Shown: piece by piece, positions 2,432 to 12,906 of the stretch
Position numbering within the stretch: position 1 is the stretch's first letter
How the letters are laid out: each line of letters starts with the position of its first letter
Source: a virus
Taxonomy: Duplodnaviria; Caudoviricetes
Length of the DNA stretch: 64,000 nt
IMG/VR virus record: IMGVR_UViG_3300045958_000007
Location: 8,929-72,928 of that record
Reading direction: 5' to 3' (one strand)
Notes under the pieces: model-generated
Told to the model about the DNA's origin: nothing
What the model saw: only the letters and a program-made list of their open reading frames with translations
The model's database searches: none
Program-made: the position numbers and the translations under genes

Positions 2432-4585
2432 CTACGCTACCCCGGCCTCGTACTCGATATCGAGGTCGATCAGCATCAATTGATACTGGCCGGTGCCCGA
2501 GAGTCGGAATACCCGGTCGCGCGAGGCGCTGGTCCCGGCCCAGAAAACGCGCTGGCTGTAGGCTCCGGCCACGCCGGCGCCGCCCGTCACCGGCGAAATC
2601 GGATAAACGAAGGTGTTGCCACGGTCGTCGGAGTAGTCCCGCGTGATGGTCGGCTGTATCGTCGCCGAGCTCGTGGTGCCGGTTGCCACCTCGAGCGTCA
2701 TGCGTCCGAAAAACTGGAGGACGCCGGCGGCGTAGAAGTGCGGCAGGACGCGGATCCACTTCTTGTCTGCGCCGTTGTCGTCGAAGTAGTTGAGGTTCAC
2801 CTCGTAGAAGCTGCCGGAGGCGAAGTCGCAACCAATATGCATCCCGGCCGGTCCCCACTCCGGGATGAAGGTGTGGAACCGCGGCACGTAAGACGCGAAC
2901 GCCGATCCGGTCCAGGCCGCCCGCTGGTGCCAGATCGGCGTCCCCGCCTGTTGGCTCGCGGTTTCGTCGTAGACGTATGTGTTCAACGCTCCCGGAAAGT
3001 TGATGACCCAGAACTGATGCCCGTCGTGGACTTCCGGGTAGGCGATCGCGCCCGATGGAGTATCGATCCCGGAGGCCCAGGCCGCCTCTTCGGCGTGCGT
3101 CGAGATGCGGGTCGGGGTGAAGCCGTCGATCCGGTACGCGATGGGCGTCCCGCGCGGGCTGCCCCCGAGGTAGTAAATCCTCTCGCTCATCGCCACCGGC
3201 GCGTAGCGCGCGACACTGCCCTCGCGAGCCGCCGCCCCGCTGATCCGCTGAAACGGAAACGTGGGGTCGCCGGTGTTCTGCCAGACTTCGCTTTCCTCGC
3301 TGCCGAAGATGTAGAGCTGCTCGTGGTCTGCGAGGACCGACTGGATGTAGTCGGGCGCCCCCTCTTTGGTCGCGAAATCGAGCGGGTCCCAGGTGGTGCC
3401 GTCGAAGGGGGCGGAGATGTTGAACTGGCCGCCGAGGTCAGCTCCCACCGCGGCGGTGTAGGTTACTCCCGTGAGCGTGCCCGGCGAAACGCTGACCAAG
3501 AGAAGAGTCGCACTTACGACATCGACCACCGTGTAGTTGAGCCCGGCAATCGTGATCTTCTGGGTTGGCACGATCTCGTCGAACATGCTGCCGCTTACCC
3601 AGTTGACGGTCGTTCCCAAGGTGCTCACGGTGCCGCTCAAGGTCTGGAGCGTTGCCGTGAAGGCCGCGCCGGTCTGGGTGCCGGCGCCCCCGGTGAGCGT
3701 GATGCTCGTCGAGGAATTGACCGTCTGGATGTCGTATGCAATTCCGCTGATGACGATCTGCTGGCCCGCGATCAGCCGCGCGAAGTTGTCCCCCGAGGTC
3801 CAGGTAACGGCCGTGCCGCTGGTCGACACGACGCCCCGGAGCTGCTGCGGCGGGCGCTGCACGATGAAATAGCTGTCGAGGTATGCCCCCGTTACCGCGG
3901 TCACGGGATCGCCGTAAGCGGCGGCGTAGGTCGCGCCCGTCTGCGTGCCGGCGCTCGCCCCGAGGGTGAGACTGGTTGCGGAGTTCCAGGTGACGCTGTA
4001 CGGCGTTCCGTCGATCAGGATGTAGCCGCCGTTCATGGACGACGGAAACTCATCCCCGGAGACCCAGGTAACCGCCGTACCGGAGGTATTGACCGTGCCG
4101 CTGATCTGGAAGTGAGCGATGGCGGGGCCCGAGCCCTCATCGATGTAGGCGTAGCCGTTCTTGACGATCAAGAGCTGGTTGCCGTTGCCGAACATCTGCC
4201 CCGGGTAGCCGTCCGAGGTCGAGCCGGTAAGCTGCTGCTTGGTAATCATCGCCCCCGAGCCCGTGGAAGGGTTGCCCCCCACGTAAGAGCCGATGCCCAA
4301 CTCCCACAGCCAGGAATTCCCGCCGGCAACGCCGTTGGAGTCGTCGGTGAGGACGAACAGCCGGCCTCCGCCCGACCAGGCTCCGCGGAAGACGTGCCCC
4401 GACGTGCTGCCGAGCGTGTTCACGTCGCCGATCTTGTGGTACCCGGGCGCGAATTCGAGGATGCCCTTGTTCTTGCCCTGCTCGTTGGGGTCGTCGATGA
4501 ACTGCGGAATCAGGTTCATCGTCTGCTGGCAGGCAGCGGCCGGGTTGCGCAGGGTGTAGGACTGGCCGACTAAAGGGACTTTCAT
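2432..4585 (-). CDS. Tail hub / packaged DNA stabilization protein, P22 gp10-like, with three inserted repeats
   Basis: MKVPLVGQSY...QTMNLIP start; FATKEGAPD, IFGSEESEVWQNTG, RISTHAEE and RDRVFRLS motifs. Confidence 0.85.
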   Translation of the reverse strand: MKVPLVGQSYTLRNPAAACQQTMNLIPQFIDDPNEQGKNKGILEFAPGYHKIGDVNTLGSTSGHVFRGAWSGGGRLFVLTDDSNGVAGGNSWLWELGIGSYVGGNPSTGSGAMITKQQLTGSTSDGYPGQMFGNGNQLLIVKNGYAYIDEGSGPAIAHFQISGTVNTSGTAVTWVSGDEFPSSMNGGYILIDGTPYSVTWNSATSLTLGASAGTQTGATYAAAYGDPVTAVTGAYLDSYFIVQRPPQQLRGVVSTSGTAVTWTSGDNFARLIAGQQIVISGIAYDIQTVNSSTSITLTGGAGTQTGAAFTATLQTLSGTVSTLGTTVNWVSGSMFDEIVPTQKITIAGLNYTVVDVVSATLLLVSVSPGTLTGVTYTAAVGADLGGQFNISAPFDGTTWDPLDFATKEGAPDYIQSVLADHEQLYIFGSEESEVWQNTGDPTFPFQRISGAAAREGSVARYAPVAMSERIYYLGGSPRGTPIAYRIDGFTPTRISTHAEEAAWASGIDTPSGAIAYPEVHDGHQFWVINFPGALNTYVYDETASQQAGTPIWHQRAAWTGSAFASYVPRFHTFIPEWGPAGMHIGCDFASGSFYEVNLNYFDDNGADKKWIRVLPHFYAAGVLQFFGRMTLEVATGTTSSATIQPTITRDYSDDRGNTFVYPISPVTGGAGVAGAYSQRVFWAGTSASRDRVFRLSGTGQYQLMLIDLDIEYEAGVA

Positions 4586-4791: not shown

Positions 4792-5316
4792 TTACTTCTG
4801 GCGCTTGCGCGGCGTTGCCGCCGCTTCGGCGGTATCGCCCTCGGCCGTGGCGGGCTGTTCCGGCTTCGCCGCGGCGAGCAGCTCGGCGCGCAGGTCTTCG
4901 ATCTGCGCCGCGGCTTCCTTGGAGCGCAGCTTTTCGGCCGCTAGTTCCTTCTGCAGTTCCAGGATCTCCGCGACCTTCTCGGCGCCGTAGTTCTCGAGCG
5001 CCCGGAGTTCGCGCTGCATCTCCCGCTGGAGATCGGCGTACTTCGCCTTCCACTCCTCGCCCGTCAATTCCTTGGGCGGGGCGGCCGGCGCCGGCGGAGG
5101 CGGCGGCGGAAACTTCGCGTACTCCGGCCCGAGGGCGGCGTCCTCTTCGGCGTTCTGGACGGTGACGGAGCTTCCGTCCTCGTGATACCGGGTGGCGGGA
5201 TACGGCCGGTGCTTGTACGGCTCGGGCCGGCCAGGGCGGACCGGGGCGAGGACCGCACCGCGCATCTGCGGGGTAATGATGAGCCGGGTCTTCTGCTGAA
5301 TAGGGGTATCGCTCAT
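4792..5316 (-). CDS. Conserved phage protein downstream of coat (coiled-coil C-terminus)
   Basis: YPATRYHEDGSSVTVQNAEEDAALGPEY motif typical of the small gene after P22-like coat genes. Confidence 0.7.
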   Translation of the reverse strand: MSDTPIQQKTRLIITPQMRGAVLAPVRPGRPEPYKHRPYPATRYHEDGSSVTVQNAEEDAALGPEYAKFPPPPPPAPAAPPKELTGEEWKAKYADLQREMQRELRALENYGAEKVAEILELQKELAAEKLRSKEAAAQIEDLRAELLAAAKPEQPATAEGDTAEAAATPRKRQK

Positions 5317-6429: not shown

Positions 6430-7686
6430 TTAGCCGCAGATGCGCACGCCCCAGTCGCCGCGCTGCGCAACCCAGCCGAACATGATGTCGCAGCGGGTAG
6501 CAAAGATGTCGTTCACGATGTCGTACTGGGACACCGTGCGGATCGACATCCCGGTGGCGGGATCGGTGGCGCGCTTCGCCATCTCGACCGCGCGGGGCAG
6601 GTCGAGCGGCACGCAGGCCCAGGCGTAGGCTTCCTTGTGGAAGGCCATCGCCTGCGGGGTCAGCGTTCCGGCGGTGCCGAACAGGGTCAACGCCGCGCCG
6701 GAGAGCGGAGTCGTGTTGCAGGTGGCATACGGATTCGGCAGGCCGTTGTTGTTGGTGCCGACCGCGATCGCCGGGTAGATGGGCACCACGCCGTTGCCCG
6801 AGCCGTCCGCGTTCACCGGAGCGGTGACCACGAACTGCCGCAGATCGCTCAGGGTGTCGCCCGAAACCGGGTTCACCGCGTAGATCGGGGTGCCCCCGAC
6901 GCCGAGCGTGAACACGTCGCCGGCGTTATAGACGTTCTGCGCGTTGGGGGTGAGGCCGTTGATGACGAGGGCGCTGCCGGTCTGGCCCGCGCCGTTGACG
7001 ACCGGGGTGCCCGCGCCCGAGCCGATCGTGTGGGTGCGGATGTTCTGGGCGAGCAGCCAGTCGAAGCCGGCGCCGGTGCCCATCCGCCCTTTGAGGTACT
7101 GCTTTTTGATCTGCTCCGAGCTCTGGAACAGGCCTTTCAGGGTATCGATGATCTGGGTCTGGAACTTCGACGCGATCACCATGTACCGCTGCTCGTCGAT
7201 CGGCGCCGAATTGCGGTCCAGGGCCTCGAGAGCGGAGAGGTACGTCTGGAAGGCGGTCGAGCCGTTGGGCACGCTGCCGGGGGTGCCGACCACGTTCGGA
7301 GTAGCCTGGTAGGCCACGGTGAGGCCGACCACTTCGGCGGCGTTCGACAGCGCGATCGCCGCGCCTTCGATGTAGCGTTCGCCGATGCGGTCGATCGAGA
7401 GCGTCTGTTCGGCCGAGGTGAAGCTGAAAGCGGTGTGCTTGCGCTGGTTGATGACCAGCGGGATTTTCCGCTCTTCGACGTCCTGGATGACCAGGTTGGC
7501 GCCGTCGACGGCAGCGAATCGCACCGGATCCCGGAGCGAAAGGGTGTCGCCGATCTTGGCGCCCGGTTTGGCGAAGTGCTCGGACCAGTCTTCGTGGTGA
7601 ACGGCTTTGGCAAAGCCGAGGTTGTTTTGGAAGCGCCGCAGCAGTTCGTTGGTGATGATCTGCGGCGTAAGAATCGTATTGGACAA
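6430..7686 (-). CDS. Major capsid protein, P22 coat family
   Basis: SNTILTPQIITNELLRRFQNNL, KIGDTLSLRDPVRF, MAFHKEAYAWACVPL and RCDIMFGW motifs; follows scaffold. Confidence 0.92.
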   Translation of the reverse strand: MSNTILTPQIITNELLRRFQNNLGFAKAVHHEDWSEHFAKPGAKIGDTLSLRDPVRFAAVDGANLVIQDVEERKIPLVINQRKHTAFSFTSAEQTLSIDRIGERYIEGAAIALSNAAEVVGLTVAYQATPNVVGTPGSVPNGSTAFQTYLSALEALDRNSAPIDEQRYMVIASKFQTQIIDTLKGLFQSSEQIKKQYLKGRMGTGAGFDWLLAQNIRTHTIGSGAGTPVVNGAGQTGSALVINGLTPNAQNVYNAGDVFTLGVGGTPIYAVNPVSGDTLSDLRQFVVTAPVNADGSGNGVVPIYPAIAVGTNNNGLPNPYATCNTTPLSGAALTLFGTAGTLTPQAMAFHKEAYAWACVPLDLPRAVEMAKRATDPATGMSIRTVSQYDIVNDIFATRCDIMFGWVAQRGDWGVRICG

Positions 7687-7692
7687 GGGGAC

Positions 7693-8805
7693 TTACCTTT
7701 TCTTGAGCTGCGCCTCCCGCGCTTTGACCCACTTGGCGTAATCGTTGGCGTCCTGGTCCGACATGGGATCGGCTTGAGGGGCTAATGGTCTTCCGCCGAG
7801 GTGGGCGGGAGGGCGCGAGGCGCGCGATGGCTGTTGTTTCGGTTGCGGTTTTGGGGCAGGCTTCGGCGCTGCGGCTCCGGGCTTGGCGGCGCCCTTATCG
7901 GCGGCGGCGCCCTTGGCGGGCGGCGCAATCCGGGTGCGGATCTCTCCGAGCAGCATGCCGGCGCGGGCGAGGGCGACCCCCCATTCGCGCTCGTTGGTGG
8001 CGAGCGTCGAGCGGGCGATCTTCTCGGACTCCTCCGGGTGCTGGCCGAGGTAGTAGGCGATCTCGGTGCCGGCTTCCGGGTCCATGCGCATCACGGACTC
8101 CATGGCGGCCGAGATCTTCACCGCGGGATTGGCAACGACCTCGTTGTAATCGGCAAACCTTGCGGCGGCGCGATTCCATTCGGCCTGCGCGGAAGTCCGC
8201 GCGTGCTCTTCCTCGAGGGCCTGCTTCTGCTTCGCCAGGGCGGCGGCTACCTTGCGCTCGGTGAGCGCCTGGTTGTAGGCGTCGAGCGCCTCCTCGTACT
8301 GGTCCCAGGCGGATTTCTCGTCGGTGTCCTCGAAGTCCCGTAGCATCGGGCGGGCGAGCGGCTTGTCCGCCTCCTCGTCCACTGTTTCCGTGGAGGACGC
8401 TGCTTCCTCCGTAGCTTCCTCTCCCTCCTCCCCTCTGGTGAGGGCATCGAGGCGGGATTGGAGCTCCGCGATTGTGCCGGTCAGCTTCCGCATGCGCCGG
8501 GCGAGGCGCTTATCCTTCTCGGGCTCCTGTTCCTGGGCGGCCTGTACTTCTTCCTGCTCCGCTTCTCCCCCGGGCTCCGACTCCGTGGCGCTTTGGCCCT
8601 CCCGGATTTCTTCTTCTTCCTCGGAGGACTCGGATGGCGGCGTGACTCTGGCGCCCGCCGCGGGCGCTTCTTCTTCCTGCTCTTCGGCCTTCGCCGGCAC
8701 CTCGCCGGTCTCGCGGAAAGCCACGAAGGATTCGTAATCCTCCGGGATCTCTACATAGTCCTGGTCGGTCTGGGCGACGAGGGCGTCAGTTAGTTCGGAC
8801 TGCAT
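7693..8805 (-). CDS. Scaffolding protein
   Basis: Acidic, coiled-coil, Pro-rich; C-terminal YAKWVKAREAQ; between portal and coat; start moved to MQSELTD after GGAG. Confidence 0.8.
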   Translation of the reverse strand: MQSELTDALVAQTDQDYVEIPEDYESFVAFRETGEVPAKAEEQEEEAPAAGARVTPPSESSEEEEEIREGQSATESEPGGEAEQEEVQAAQEQEPEKDKRLARRMRKLTGTIAELQSRLDALTRGEEGEEATEEAASSTETVDEEADKPLARPMLRDFEDTDEKSAWDQYEEALDAYNQALTERKVAAALAKQKQALEEEHARTSAQAEWNRAAARFADYNEVVANPAVKISAAMESVMRMDPEAGTEIAYYLGQHPEESEKIARSTLATNEREWGVALARAGMLLGEIRTRIAPPAKGAAADKGAAKPGAAAPKPAPKPQPKQQPSRASRPPAHLGGRPLAPQADPMSDQDANDYAKWVKAREAQLKKR

Positions 8806-8885
8806 GCGTTTGGGTGTTTCTCCAATGCGGGGATGTTCGCGGCGTACAAAGCCCACCGCTGGGCGGGTACTGCTGAAGTCGTGAG

Positions 8886-10371
8886 TTATGCGGCCTGGGC
8901 AATCTCAGGCGGAGGTGCGCAAGGCATGATCGAGCGTGCAATAAGCAAGCGCCGCAACAAGCGGCACGACGCCATTTCCCAATGCGCGTAGTCGGTCGAC
9001 GCGAGAGCCTCCATGCTCGTCCACCCGACCGGCACGCCCATCAGATGCTCGACAAATCGCGGGTTCAAGATCCGGGGCGAGCAGGAGCAGCCGACGCCAT
9101 GCTCCGAGGTCGGCGGGGCCGGGAGGGAAAACCGGGATATATCCTGTTTCAAACAATGCCGGCGTTTCGGCGATCCCGCGCTTTCGGCCTCCTGCGCGGT
9201 GGGCGTCGACCACTGCCCTGCCGTCTCGCAAAGCGGCCTCGCGTTCCTGCGCTTGATCTTGTCCGTGACGGCTGAACGGTAGTCCTTCGCCTGCGGAGTC
9301 GGCCATTCCTTCACATGCCACTGCAGGTTGCCGCCCCGGTGTTTGGCCGTGTTCGGCCTCTGCGGGCCGCTCATCGCTCCGACCGTATGGGTTGGCCAGA
9401 ACCGCGCCTGCTGATCCAAGCCCTGCTCGTCCCTGCGCTCGCCGCCCCGCGAGCGAAATGAATCGGTGGCCGGGGTCTGCCAGCGCATCACCTGTTTGGC
9501 GAATTCCCCGCCGCCCCCGGCCGTCTTCCCGCGCTTGTCGGTGTTCTGGAAGCCGTGCGGAGTTTTCCAGGTTGCCGCTTCCTCCGCCAGAATCTTGCCG
9601 CCCGTTCCCGGCTTCCGCGTGCTCATCCGCACTCCCTGCGCCGTAACCGTAGGCCAGGTTTTCGCGGCCATCGCTAACGGCACCCCGCAGCCGTTGCCGT
9701 TGTAGCCTTTGGCTTTCATGGCGGCTTTCCGCTTCAGCCACGTCTCGGGCTGCTCGCCGTCCTGCGAGATGGCCGCGTCCGGGCTGGGCCAGGTCCGCGC
9801 CGCGCCCGTCAGCGAATCCTGCGCCCCCGGATGATTCCCGGCGCTCTCCGCGTCCTCCGCCCTCGCGCTCGGCCAGGCAGAAGAGCCGCCGGGCGCCGGT
9901 GGGGGCCCCCGACTTCTGCCGCCGTAAAGAGTCCCGCCGCGCACCTGTAACCCAGGCGTCGTAACTCGCACGCGACTTCAAAGAATCCGAGTCGAGCATG
10001 GGCGTCCACGTTTTCGAGGAAGACCCTCCCGGGCTGGCATTCCCGGATGATCCGGGCGACGTGCGGCCAGAGGTGGCGCGGGTCCTTTTCGGCCCGCTGT
10101 TTTCCGGCGCAACTGAACGGCTGGCACGGGTAGCCCGCGCAGAGGATATCGACCTTTCCCTTCCAGGGGCGGCCGTCGAACGTCTTAACGTCGCTCCAAA
10201 TTGGCGCAGGACGGAGGGATCCGTCTTCAAAGCGCGCAACCAGCCTTTGCGCGACAGTGATTTCCCTTTCCACGTAGCAGACGGTTCTAACTTCGCCGCA
10301 AGCGAGTCGTAATCCGAGGTCGATGCCGCCGTATCCGGCGCAGAGGGAGAGGACGGTAGGTATATCCACAC
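8886..10371 (-). pseudogene. Overprinted alternative-frame ORF (beta-type chain with WPTP repeats and motif IX-like segment), broken by the same frameshift
   Basis: GTG start MWIYLP... 2 nt from the alpha start; continues after the shift as WPS/WKT/WQT/WPT/WST repeats and LNPRFVEHLMGVPVGWT. Confidence 0.65.
8905..10369 (-). pseudogene. dcm: DNA cytosine-C5 methyltransferase (alpha-type chain), broken by a +1 frameshift at about 9889-9893
   Basis: Motifs I (LCAGYGG), IV (GYPCQPFS), VI (FLENV) and VIII (AAEVGGPHRR) in one frame; RLFCLA and motif X (LGNGVVP) in the next frame. Confidence 0.85.
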
Positions 10372-10379
10372 GGGTTCGG

Positions 10380-12614
10380 TTATGCGGCCTGGGCGGCTTG
10401 CGGCCCAGCCGGTTGCTGCGCCTGCGCCTGTTGCGCGGCCTGCTGCTGGTCAAATTGCTGCTGTTGCTGTTGCTGCTGCTGTTCGTGCTGTTGCTGGGCC
10501 TGCTGCATCTGCTGCGCCTGCTGGAACTCCCGCTCCTGCCCGGCGGCGTCGGCCGCGATGGTGAGGTTGGCGTGCTCCAACTCGGCGCGGAGATCGAGCG
10601 CGTGTTTGACCCCGGCGTGATCGAGTTGCGCGAGCTGCGTCATCTGCGCGCTCTTGGCCGTGGTCTCGGCCACCTGGAGCCGGGTCCGGTTGTTCTCGGT
10701 GTTCATCCGCTCCTTCGACTCGATATCGAGCATCTTGCCCTTGAGTAGCTGGAGCAATTGCTGGTTTTCGACCGTGAGCGCCTGGATCAACTGCTGCCCC
10801 TGCTGGAGCTGCGCCTGGATGGCCGGCGGGATGGCGTGCTCGTCCTCGTCCTGCAGGTTGGCCGGGAGCATCTTCTTCAGGCGCTTGGCGATCCGGTCGG
10901 CGCCGGGGAAATCGGAATTCTCGAAGTAGATGTCGGCGACGAGTTGCATCAACTGCGGGTTGCCCTGCGCCAGCGCCATCAGGGTGTCGCGCGTCTCCTG
11001 CCGCGCCGACGTATAGCTGGGCCCCTGCTCCACGGTGACGTCGTACTTGCCGACGTCGAGGCGATGGTGCTTGGTGCGGCCGTCCTGGTCGGTGAACGGG
11101 GCATTGACCCTGATTACCCGCTGTTTCTGGTCCTCCCCGATGATGCGGATTTCGCGGGCCGTATCGTACTTCTTGGGGATGAGGTCGAGGAGGATGCGTC
11201 CGGCGCGCTTGAGGGCGCGCGCCAGGTTGTCCATGAAATGAAAATTGGAAACGTCCCCCTGCTTCTGCAGCTTGCCCACGGCAACGCCGGAGAGGTCCTC
11301 CTTGACCGCGCCGAGCGAGGGGTCGAAGTATCCGGTCGAGGCCTTGATGTCGTCCGCAGCCGCCGCGGCACCGATCGAGAGGGCCTGCACCGGCGGGTCG
11401 AAGGTCCGCCATTGGGGCTCGGGCGCCAGCTTGTCCCCCACGGCCACGGCGTCATATTCGAGATAGGCCGCGTTGTCGCTGTTTGCGCGCTGCCAGTCCT
11501 TGCGTTTCGTTTTGAACTGGCCGACCGCCCCTACCCATTTCGGTTTGGGGGCTAAGGCGATGGTTTCGGCTTCCATCGTCTTGTAGAAGTTGAGGAGCTG
11601 CTGCGGATCGCGGGCGAACCGCGTCATCGAGAAGATGCGGCGCTCGCCCCGCACGATCATCTCGAGGCCGGTCACCATCACGATGGGGATGGTGGAGCCG
11701 TCCCACGGGGTCGGCTCCTCGAGCACCTGCGCGCCGTTGATGATGTACTGGGTTACCTGCGGGATCGAGACCGTGCGCTCCAGGATCTCGCCGTCCGGGC
11801 CGGTGGCCCAGTCCATCGCCTCGATATCGGCGTCGGTGAGGCCGTCCTTCTCCTTGAGGTCCTCCAGGTATTCACGGTGAAGGGTTCCGTCCTCTTCGCG
11901 GCGCATCCGGAGGGTCTTTTGGACTTCCTGGACCTCCCAATACTCCGCGACGAGCCGCGAGGTGGCGTCCATCCACCCCTCGTTTTCGAGGTCGGTGGCG
12001 AATTCGTCGGACAGGTCCGAGGCGTCGGGGCCGAAGCGCGCTTCAAAGGCGTCATTGGCGAAACGCTCGAGCACGAACCCCCACTTGGCATCGGAGCGGT
12101 CGGGCTTCCGCGCATAGCAATCGAGGTAGATCGAAAACGGATCGTCGACCGTGACCGTCTTGAGGTCCTGGTCGAAGCTCTCGTTGTCGGTGTACTCGGA
12201 GGTGTAGCGCCAGTAGCCGAAGCCGCAGCCGGCGGCGTAGAACAGGGCCGTGTCGTAGGCCTGCTCCGCGTCCGAGTCGTACTCGATATGGCGGATCAGC
12301 CCCTGCAGGACCTTGGCGGTGTCGGGGTCGCCTGCCGAGTCCACCGGGTTGACCCGGATGGCCGGCTTGTTCTGGCGCGCCTGGTTGCCGAGTTGGGTAA
12401 CCGGAGGCAGGACTTTGTTGAAGACGAGGCACGGCCGCGGCGAGGGGCCGCGCTCGCGATCACGCTTCACCTTCTGGTCCCACTGCTGGCCGGCGAGAAA
12501 CTCCAGGTCGATGAGCGCCTCCCGCCTGATTTCCTGCTCGGCGGCGACGGCCTGCTGATATCTTTTCCGGGCTCTCTCGAGGACTTGCCGGTACTTACTC
12601 TGGTTGAGCGGCAT
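10380..12614 (-). CDS. Portal protein, P22 gp1-like, with Gln-rich C-terminal tail
   Basis: DLEFLAGQQW, RPCLVFNKV, HIEYDSDAEQAYDTA, RFARDPQQLLN and GKYDVTVEQGPSYTS motifs; start set at MPLNQSKY. Confidence 0.92.
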   Translation of the reverse strand: MPLNQSKYRQVLERARKRYQQAVAAEQEIRREALIDLEFLAGQQWDQKVKRDRERGPSPRPCLVFNKVLPPVTQLGNQARQNKPAIRVNPVDSAGDPDTAKVLQGLIRHIEYDSDAEQAYDTALFYAAGCGFGYWRYTSEYTDNESFDQDLKTVTVDDPFSIYLDCYARKPDRSDAKWGFVLERFANDAFEARFGPDASDLSDEFATDLENEGWMDATSRLVAEYWEVQEVQKTLRMRREEDGTLHREYLEDLKEKDGLTDADIEAMDWATGPDGEILERTVSIPQVTQYIINGAQVLEEPTPWDGSTIPIVMVTGLEMIVRGERRIFSMTRFARDPQQLLNFYKTMEAETIALAPKPKWVGAVGQFKTKRKDWQRANSDNAAYLEYDAVAVGDKLAPEPQWRTFDPPVQALSIGAAAAADDIKASTGYFDPSLGAVKEDLSGVAVGKLQKQGDVSNFHFMDNLARALKRAGRILLDLIPKKYDTAREIRIIGEDQKQRVIRVNAPFTDQDGRTKHHRLDVGKYDVTVEQGPSYTSARQETRDTLMALAQGNPQLMQLVADIYFENSDFPGADRIAKRLKKMLPANLQDEDEHAIPPAIQAQLQQGQQLIQALTVENQQLLQLLKGKMLDIESKERMNTENNRTRLQVAETTAKSAQMTQLAQLDHAGVKHALDLRAELEHANLTIAADAAGQEREFQQAQQMQQAQQQHEQQQQQQQQQFDQQQAAQQAQAQQPAGPQAAQAA

Positions 12615-12906
12615 GGGGGAGGGGTTCGGGCTCGGCCGGCACAACAACGGGCGCGCACTCGTGCGCCTTGCCGGCTCCGCCCGCGGCGCCGCAGAACGGG
12701 CACTCGTCGGTCATCGGCCGGGGGGTAAATCTCAGGTACGGCCGCAGGCGATCAATCATGAGGCGGCGCGCTTCGGGCGCGGCTCCTTCGAGCAGGCGGT
12801 CGAGCATCTCCGGCGTGAAAATGGCGTTCGCCATCAGGGCGATGCGGCGGTCGTCGCGGCGCTCCTGGGGCGAGAGTTTGCGGGGGCGGGTGAAGCGGTG
12901 GCTCAT
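12595..12906 (-). CDS. Hypothetical protein with C-terminal CxxC, paralogue of 4582..4791
   Basis: MSHRFTRP start by ATGA coupling; DRLRPYLRFTPRP motif. Confidence 0.6.
   Translation of the reverse strand: MSHRFTRPRKLSPQERRDDRRIALMANAIFTPEMLDRLLEGAAPEARRLMIDRLRPYLRFTPRPMTDECPFCGAAGGAGKAHECAPVVVPAEPEPLPHAAQPE

Follow-up and report, generated by a model that had tools for sequence, protein, structure and literature searches.

A phage C5 cytosine methyltransferase locus open in two same-strand reading frames: a probable domain-split, two-chain enzyme, interrupted by one extra base

[quoted passage not shown] Two-chain enzymes of this class, as well as fragment complementation, are known (PMC3404938, PMC2836561). 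M.EcoHK31I of Escherichia coli, which acts on YGGCCR, is an alpha/beta C5 methyltransferase (Lee, Kam and Shaw 1995, via PMC2836561 and PMC3404938) in which, as far as these secondary accounts describe it, the second chain is read in another frame, motif IX lies on beta and motifs I-VIII and X lie on alpha (PMC2836561); in the same accounts its alpha also holds the recognition domain, and its beta is small and nested wholly inside alpha. M.AquI (CYCGRG) is a natural split enzyme with some of the variable region, together with motif IX, on its second chain, the division being sequential, with motifs I-VIII plus a portion of the variable region followed by the rest of that region and motifs IX-X (PMC3404938). 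M.HhaI and M.HaeIII, on the other hand, are single chains with a compact recognition domain between motifs VIII and IX. Split M.SssI, M.HhaI and M.BspRI, which are laboratory constructs made from separate genes, show that the fold can be assembled from non-covalent pieces, particularly if it is cut in the variable region (PMC3404938). Lastly, a stretch open and translated in two frames is known in an actinophage methylase gene, where the second frame is a ShiLan-domain HNH endonuclease, a selfish homing nuclease located in an insertion (PMC11855218). In this work, we describe an orphan C5 cytosine methyltransferase gene of a P22-like phage, located on the minus strand at 10371-8886 of a 64,000-nucleotide (nt) window, which is the whole stretch of DNA that was analysed and forms part of a 72,928-base record rated complete, a metagenome-assembled virus contig (IMG/VR record IMGVR_UViG_3300045958_000007). 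All motif and frame coordinates are window positions.

The locus occupies all three forward frames of the minus strand, and we consider it probable, from sequence comparison and structure prediction, that it codes for a domain-split, two-chain C5 methyltransferase, with both chains read from the same strand in two frames with adjacent starts. Alpha would carry catalytic motifs I-VIII, a disordered spacer, an FPPGP segment and motif X. Beta, in the +1 frame, would begin with M/V-W-L/I-Y-x-P, its N-terminal part would wrap the catalytic domain, and its W-x-T-P array together with motif IX would form the small DNA-recognition domain. The chains would join non-covalently into one enzyme, a domain-wise version of the M.EcoHK31I alpha/beta design. 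Over most of the DNA, one frame would bear the amino-acid selection and the other would only stay free of stops; in the last ~45 codons, where both frames are constrained, the two products would touch. Translation of both chains, formation of the heterodimer and target reading by the W-x-T-P array are what we infer; the observations behind them are given below.

Compared with the described systems, of which M.EcoHK31I is the nearest, the division would be domain-wise, because motifs I-VIII and X make up the large domain, and the recognition region and motif IX the small one. As in M.EcoHK31I, beta overlaps the alpha gene in a different frame and has motif IX, and to this extent the parallel drawn in a preliminary description of this DNA holds; unlike in that enzyme, beta here would carry the whole small domain and not just motif IX. 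A recognition domain on alpha and a small nested beta, as ascribed to M.EcoHK31I in the accounts cited above, are found neither in the window nor in its relatives: beta is about as long as alpha (355-570 amino acids, aa), its start lies 2-4 nt from that of alpha, the overlap extends over 1.1-1.5 kb, beta has an N-terminal part predicted to contact alpha, and the middle of alpha is a predicted disordered spacer. Unlike in M.AquI, motif X is on the catalytic chain and the chains share nearly all their DNA. The alpha model matches the large domain of M.HhaI and M.HaeIII, and the catalytic motifs are the same, whereas a linker takes the place of their recognition domain and recognition would fall to a repeat array on the second chain. 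In contrast to the ShiLan-domain case, the second frame would be part of the enzyme and spans the whole gene.

The features of the locus are listed below; frames B and C are A+1 and A+2.

10367-10371, minus strand: paired start GTGTG, with the beta GTG at 10371 and the alpha GTG at 10369
10369 to 9809, minus strand: frame A, from GTG to stop, with motifs I, IV, VI and VIII
10345-10325, minus strand: motif I, LCAGYGG, frame A
10135-10112, minus strand: motif IV, GYPCQPFS, frame A
10021-10007, minus strand: motif VI, FLENV, frame A
9910-9893, minus strand: motif VIII, GGPHRR, frame A
10371 to 8905, minus strand: frame B, from GTG, 488 codons open, with FPPGP and then motif X at its end
9129, minus strand: FPPGP, frame B
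within 8994-8950, minus strand: motif X, GNGVVP, frame B
9971-8886, minus strand: frame C, with eight W-x-(S/T)-x units and then motif IX
9875, 9791, 9656, 9569, 9482, 9398, 9305 and 9212, minus strand: starts of the beta units, W-x-(S/T)-x, spaced by 84-135 nt
9068-9018, minus strand: motif IX, LNPRFVEHLMGVPVGWT (L-N-P-R-F-V-E-H-L-M-G-V-P-V-G-W-T), frame C
9893-10369, minus strand: alpha N-terminal part, frame A, large catalytic domain (PF00145; PHROG 363)
9130-9888, minus strand: alpha linker, frame B, rich in Arg, Gly, Glu and Asp, a read-through of the DNA coding for the repeats of beta
8905-9129, minus strand: alpha C-terminal part, frame B, FPPGP...LEPA...DG...RVD plus motif X GNGVVP, conserved with relatives
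9892-10371, minus strand: beta N-terminal part, frame B, beginning V-W-I-Y-L-P-S, overlapping the coding region of the alpha catalytic domain
9069-9890, minus strand: recognition part of beta, with the eight W-x-(S/T)-x units in frame C and tblastn matches to phage methyltransferases
8886-9068, minus strand: beta motif IX and C-terminal helix, overlapping the alpha C-terminal part

In the window, beta extends beyond alpha at both ends, by 2 nt at its start and by 19 nt at its end. Frame A matches PF00145 over profile positions 2-154 (E 2.7e-27), and frame C matches, by tblastn, cytosine methyltransferase genes of distant phages. Motifs I, IV, VI and VIII of a PF00145 C5 methyltransferase thus lie on one chain, and motifs IX and X are present, in two different frames; a single chain with a recognition domain between motifs VIII and IX is not what the locus holds. 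The preliminary description, made from the letters alone, had assigned motifs I, IV, VI and VIII and, after a shift, X to one frame, the W-repeats and LNPRFVEHLMGVPVGWT to the other, and two GTG starts to GTGTG at 10371 and 10369, and each of these elements was found in its place. In the other genes of the window, the +1 frame has about 2.0 stops per 100 codons and its longest open stretch is of at most 225 codons; the doubly open locus is therefore beyond chance.

We collected 168 related loci from virus contigs and from one genome per species, grouped in 28 clusters at 85% nucleotide identity, one of which comprises 133 alphaproteobacterial prophage copies. The sample spans phages as well as prophages, the latter from many Alphaproteobacteria and from Acidobacteriota, Bryobacteraceae, Terracidiphilus, Acidimicrobiia and others. 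Beta lies in the alpha+1 frame in every related locus, and both frames are open across the whole homology span in about 160 of the 168, so that the comparison of homologues proposed in the preliminary description finds the second frame kept open. When synonymous codons were shuffled, keeping each protein and its codon usage, the beta frame would be expected to have 2-7 stops and the alpha frame 6.5-13; none was observed (27 of 27 clusters). By segments, the beta frame is free of stops over the catalytic part of alpha in 21 of 21 clusters, with 0.4-3.8 expected, and the alpha frame is free of stops over the repeats of beta in 21 of 21 clusters, with 1.3-6.7 expected. At 30-60% protein identity, time has been ample for stops to have arisen.

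The closest relative, L008, has a beta 46% identical to that of the window (BLASTP), and both its chains, of 466 aa (alpha) and 475 aa (beta), are intact. The gene annotated in Synechococcus phage Yong-M2-251 corresponds to the catalytic frame, and in Acidovorax phage Alfacinha3 the annotated 'methyltransferase' is the non-catalytic one; in each, the other frame is unannotated and open end to end. Beta is conserved at 30-60% identity across phyla, with a near-invariant W-Q-T-P...R-S-R-G-G unit. More than 500 beta homologues were obtained in a protein search, and a search with a beta profile retrieved 43,114 cluster representatives, of which 6,555 reached E 1e-30 or better; PHROG 1008, labelled 'DNA methyltransferase', is the beta frame, and most members of the beta family are labelled hypothetical. 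Two side observations concern these relatives. About 500 nt downstream of the two-frame gene of L008, at 4892-5062, a second segment, within a called 220-aa gene, is 53% identical to alpha residues 417-466, the motif X region. A distant member, L171 (1501-3017), has GTGTGG paired starts as in the window and P-C-T rather than P-C-Q in motif IV.

The distribution of variation identifies the frame under selection. For 77 distinct sequences from the large alphaproteobacterial clade, nucleotide diversity at positions 1, 2 and 3 of the alpha codons was 0.082, 0.053 and 0.207 over motifs I-VIII, 0.278, 0.076 and 0.060 in the middle, and 0.089, 0.061 and 0.124 in the C-terminal part. The selected frame thus switches from alpha to beta where the catalytic domain ends, the free position of the middle region being the third position of beta, and in the C-terminal part all three codon positions are constrained, in both frames. 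Because the free codon position switches frame between segments, we take these sequence data to show directly that each of the two frames codes for protein in a segment of its own. At the protein level, alpha conservation is high in the first ~165 and last ~60 codons and low between them, and beta conservation forms islands in the repeat array and motif IX. In L016 and 76 related loci, the two-frame gene (168-1433) is far less diverse than its upstream neighbour (1440-2634), with a third-position diversity of 0.21-0.28 against 0.44, which fits either constraint by a second frame or a separate spread of the gene.

These data bear on the simplest alternative, namely that only alpha is real, the second frame is a shadow open reading frame (ORF) produced by G+C-rich codon usage, and the database 'beta' is mis-called. 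Long spurious ORFs are common in the window, whose G+C content is 66%, and a language-model look-up can assign a wrong frame to the family of the real gene. For the latter cause, a protein-atlas look-up that placed beta beside C5 methylase clusters (0.96) was not counted, as an overlapping frame can score likewise. However, the shuffles, although they keep the alpha protein and its codon usage, still expect 2-7 stops, and third-position freedom in the middle region tracks the beta frame; it is on these two results that we regard the shadow ORF as excluded, at a residual chance that we hold to be negligible. Moreover, alpha would be left without the small domain and motif IX, and the identity of beta across phyla, with its near-invariant unit, would have no place in such a scheme.

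The starts of the two chains are also a conserved feature. In ~25 relatives, and in the clade of the window, the layout is N-TG-TGG, a beta start followed two bases on by the alpha GTG. An in-frame stop just upstream pins each start in some relatives, and in several of them the upstream stop abuts the beta start (TGA-ATG-TGG); in L097, no start other than the alpha GTG lies between motif I and an in-frame TAA upstream of it. Beta keeps its M-W-L-Y-x-P start where alpha residues vary. In the alphaproteobacterial clade there are two ATGs (ATG-N-ATG-AC), with that of alpha four bases ahead of that of beta, and beta begins M-T-W-L-Y. In a third clade beta begins internally, after motif III: in L172 (1203-2843 and 1501-2724) it starts ~45 codons into alpha (M-K-T-S-E-N-S...) and ends right past motif IX, and a downstream gene of 1,610 aa has LAGLIDADG and N6/N4 methyltransferase matches. 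In the window, the paired starts lie 8 nt past the portal stop TAA (10382-10380), and a clear Shine-Dalgarno sequence is not present; since the starts are this close to the portal stop without such a sequence, translational coupling to the upstream portal gene is likely.

The order of the selected segments admits another explanation, in which a +1 programmed frameshift after motif VIII and a second one, of -1, between motifs IX and X yield a single polypeptide with the canonical order of I-VIII, recognition domain, IX and X, the long open frames being incidental. The segments under selection do follow, in order, this single-chain layout, and a natural variant, presented below, has motifs IX and X in one frame, as one C-terminal Pfam block. 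We nevertheless regard the double frameshift as quite improbable: the unused frame stays free of stops over both spacer segments (21 of 21 clusters), conservation extends to the paired starts and to the M-W-L-Y-x-P beginning of beta, an X-XXY-YYZ slippery site between IX and X was found in 0 of 29 loci, the first junction is without a stop or an obvious pause site, and two efficient shifts in one gene would be unprecedented.

The two-chain reading depends further on what each chain contains. The alpha model of a relative has a predicted local distance difference test (pLDDT) score of at least 90 in the catalytic domain and the motif X helix (up to 96 in the C-terminal part), and matches M.HhaI and M.HaeIII (Foldseek E 1.7e-13, ~177 columns). 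Its linker, residues 178-285, has a pLDDT below 50, is predicted to be disordered and is poorly conserved, and the C-terminal part is conserved with the alpha of the Synechococcus phage and in the family alignment. Because the region between motifs VIII and X is a disordered linker in the model, alpha is, as modelled, the large domain (I-VIII and X) without a small domain or recognition domain.

In beta, the units at 9212-9875 are of 28-45 residues, with the consensus W-P-T-P-x-A-x-D...G...L-x-x-x-A. Unit number varies among relatives (beta of 355-570 aa), which suggests a modular recognition device; the W-x-T-P array, at ~29 residues per unit, may be a modular DNA-reading device of a new kind. 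Read in the alpha frame, the DNA of these units gives a repeated L-A-D-A. Pfam detects neither motif IX nor motif X in the separate frames of the window. In a natural fusion, L009, PF00145 positions 269-323 align to L-N-P-R-F-V-E-W-L-M-G-F-P and G-N-A-V-V-P, and the L-N-P...G-W-T of beta is assigned to motif IX because of this alignment. Six longer beta-like proteins gave no Pfam match, and hence no sign in them of a catalytic domain fused in frame.

Binding between the chains was examined by structure prediction. For the alpha-beta pair of L097, the interface score ipSAE is 0.87, against 0.00 for the best control; the mark used for this score is reached by 58 of 80 solved complexes and by 2 of 110 mismatched pairs. 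The runs share at least 49% of contacts, with a partner pLDDT of at least 56. The predicted interface comprises, on the alpha side, the motif I-III region, motif VIII and the C-terminal part, and on the beta side residues 1-7, 28-36, 47-58, 71-83 and 122-152 of L097, the W-Q-T-P...R-S-R-G-G unit, and motif IX with the last helix, the tightest predicted contacts being those of the beta motif IX/C-terminal helix region.

If both frames are translated, beta might still be an overprinted protein with another role, e.g., a regulator or an anti-defence factor. Its lack of a Pfam family and of a solved relative would fit this, as would a repeat array unlike the recognition domains of solved C5 methyltransferases. 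We find such a role very unlikely, because alpha would then be left without a recognition domain, and so without means of target binding, and motif IX sits in beta. [quoted passage not shown] A dual-coded heterodimeric methyltransferase, as the preliminary description had proposed, is thus supported by the open frames of the homologues, the linker in alpha, motif IX in beta and the predicted binding.

Several points weigh against the two-chain enzyme. The motif IX call comes from one natural fusion, at 23.9 bits where the cut-off is 22. Beta belongs to no Pfam family, in the frames of the window or among the representatives checked, gives only chance-level matches to solved structures and folds poorly alone (mean pLDDT 54.7); within the complex its pLDDT is only 56-58. 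The complex, for which custom alignments were used, may owe its pass to resemblance to solved single-chain C5 methyltransferases. The clusters are related by descent, so that multiplied probabilities of open frames overstate the case, and conservation in the N-terminal part of beta, whose excess over the shuffled baseline is suggestive, is a figure inflated by common ancestry. Finally, the copy in the window is itself broken, and is therefore no demonstration of DNA methylation by this phage.

About 5% of the relatives are disrupted or re-partitioned: L004 and L009 have swapped frames, and L024 has a transposase-like insertion. In L009 (2474-3946 and 2671-3717), P0103 and P0089, motifs I-III are fused in frame to the body of beta and motifs IX and X share one frame, with motifs IV-VIII and the linker on the other chain, under an ATG of its own; as two different sequences have it, this arrangement is inherited, judging from the sequences, and not a random error. 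In L004, at ~2900-3090, both chains switch frame together, in the direction opposite to the shift in the window, and one ORF joins the front of alpha to the rear of beta. In L024 (554-1486; Tropicibacter naphthalenivorans) a transposase-like ORF of 310 aa interrupts the gene past motif II.

The window copy differs from the intact relatives L008 and L097 by one extra base within CGCCCGGCGG (9895-9886, minus strand), which shifts both products by one frame. The break falls directly after the H-R-R of motif VIII in alpha and just upstream of the first W-P-S-A unit of beta, at a point where alpha requires H-R-R-x-R-L-F and beta requires a run continuing into SSAWPSARAED. By simple arithmetic, removal of one base gives open frames of 487 and 494 codons, in agreement with the lengths of 487 and 494 aa given in the preliminary description, and comparison with the relatives locates the break at 9886-9895. 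As sequenced, alpha stops 27 codons past the break, a single ORF of 488 codons fuses the N-terminal part of beta to the linker and motif X of alpha, and the recognition part has no upstream start; hence, this copy is not open from adjacent starts to adjacent stops as in the end-to-end two-frame family, of which it retains the paired starts and the conserved residues of both chains. Read with an X at the break, it has no further stop and retains, among the residues at least 90% conserved, 54 of 55 in alpha and 35 of 35 in beta. The copy being otherwise pristine, the extra base is recent or an artefact, and the enzyme as sequenced is most likely inactive.

The lesion is either a very recent mutation or an assembly error. 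An error of assembly or sequencing, with an intact two-frame gene in the phage itself, is the possibility to which we give the smaller share of belief; in its favour, the copy is pristine but for one base, the break site is very G+C-rich and adjoins a G5C5 run, and the record is a metagenome-assembled virus contig. A real mutation is preferred because the record's other long genes are unbroken, among them a frame of ~2,395 codons that stays open up to the window edge, which indicates a low indel error rate, and because the ~5% of natural relatives that are disrupted or re-partitioned show real lesions to be common. Phase variation by slipped-strand mispairing, suggested in the preliminary description, was rejected, as there is no homopolymer or repeat tract at the site, which reads C3 G2 C G2, the nearest run being the G5C5 6 nt upstream; none of the relatives examined has a frame change there. 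Exact-pattern scans spanning the break returned no near-identical contig from viral or metagenome collections, and in phage records a distant DNA search returned nothing beyond short matches of 69-75% identity.

A further reading would have the window copy working in three pieces, namely motifs I-VIII, the beta N-terminal part joined to the linker and motif X, and an internally started recognition array. We hold this form to be rather unlikely. Under it, indels would be tolerable because the enzyme is built of non-covalent pieces in frames that are all kept open, and they may re-deal segments between the chains without killing the enzyme; such 'frame shuffling' as a mode of evolution is a tentative suggestion, put forward with equally low confidence. 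Natural forms that are re-partitioned and retain every motif do exist (L009, P0103 and P0089), and L004 also swaps frames.

The locus sits between a P22-type portal gene and the scaffold/coat genes. The preliminary description had it between portal and scaffold; the portal is borne out by its family match, and the scaffold is assigned by position only, the protein in question having no family match. The neighbouring genes are:

10380-12647, minus strand: P22-type portal, upstream neighbour (PF16510, E 9.8e-163)
7693-8856, minus strand: 387-aa Glu/Ala-rich protein in the scaffold position, downstream
6430-7686, minus strand: P22-type coat, downstream (PF11651, E 9.3e-33)

No end-to-end two-frame C5 methyltransferase was found described in the full-text literature searched, which left most subscription journals and REBASE outside, so that its absence is unproven. 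For the phage of this record, either the methyltransferase has probably lost its function or the sequence of the record is wrong at 9886-9895. For the family, 1.1-1.5 kb of DNA is open in two frames, in a layout held across phyla.

In bacteria and phages, convincing examples of long overlapping genes on the same strand are rare, and, to our knowledge, annotation pipelines forbid them. Should both chains be confirmed, this would be among the largest families of fully overlapping genes, and would offer a model of how overlap can be cheap, with each frame loaded where the other is a mere spacer. It would also explain the many phage 'methyltransferases' that lack a recognition domain, and would alter the annotation of these genes and the prediction of their specificity.

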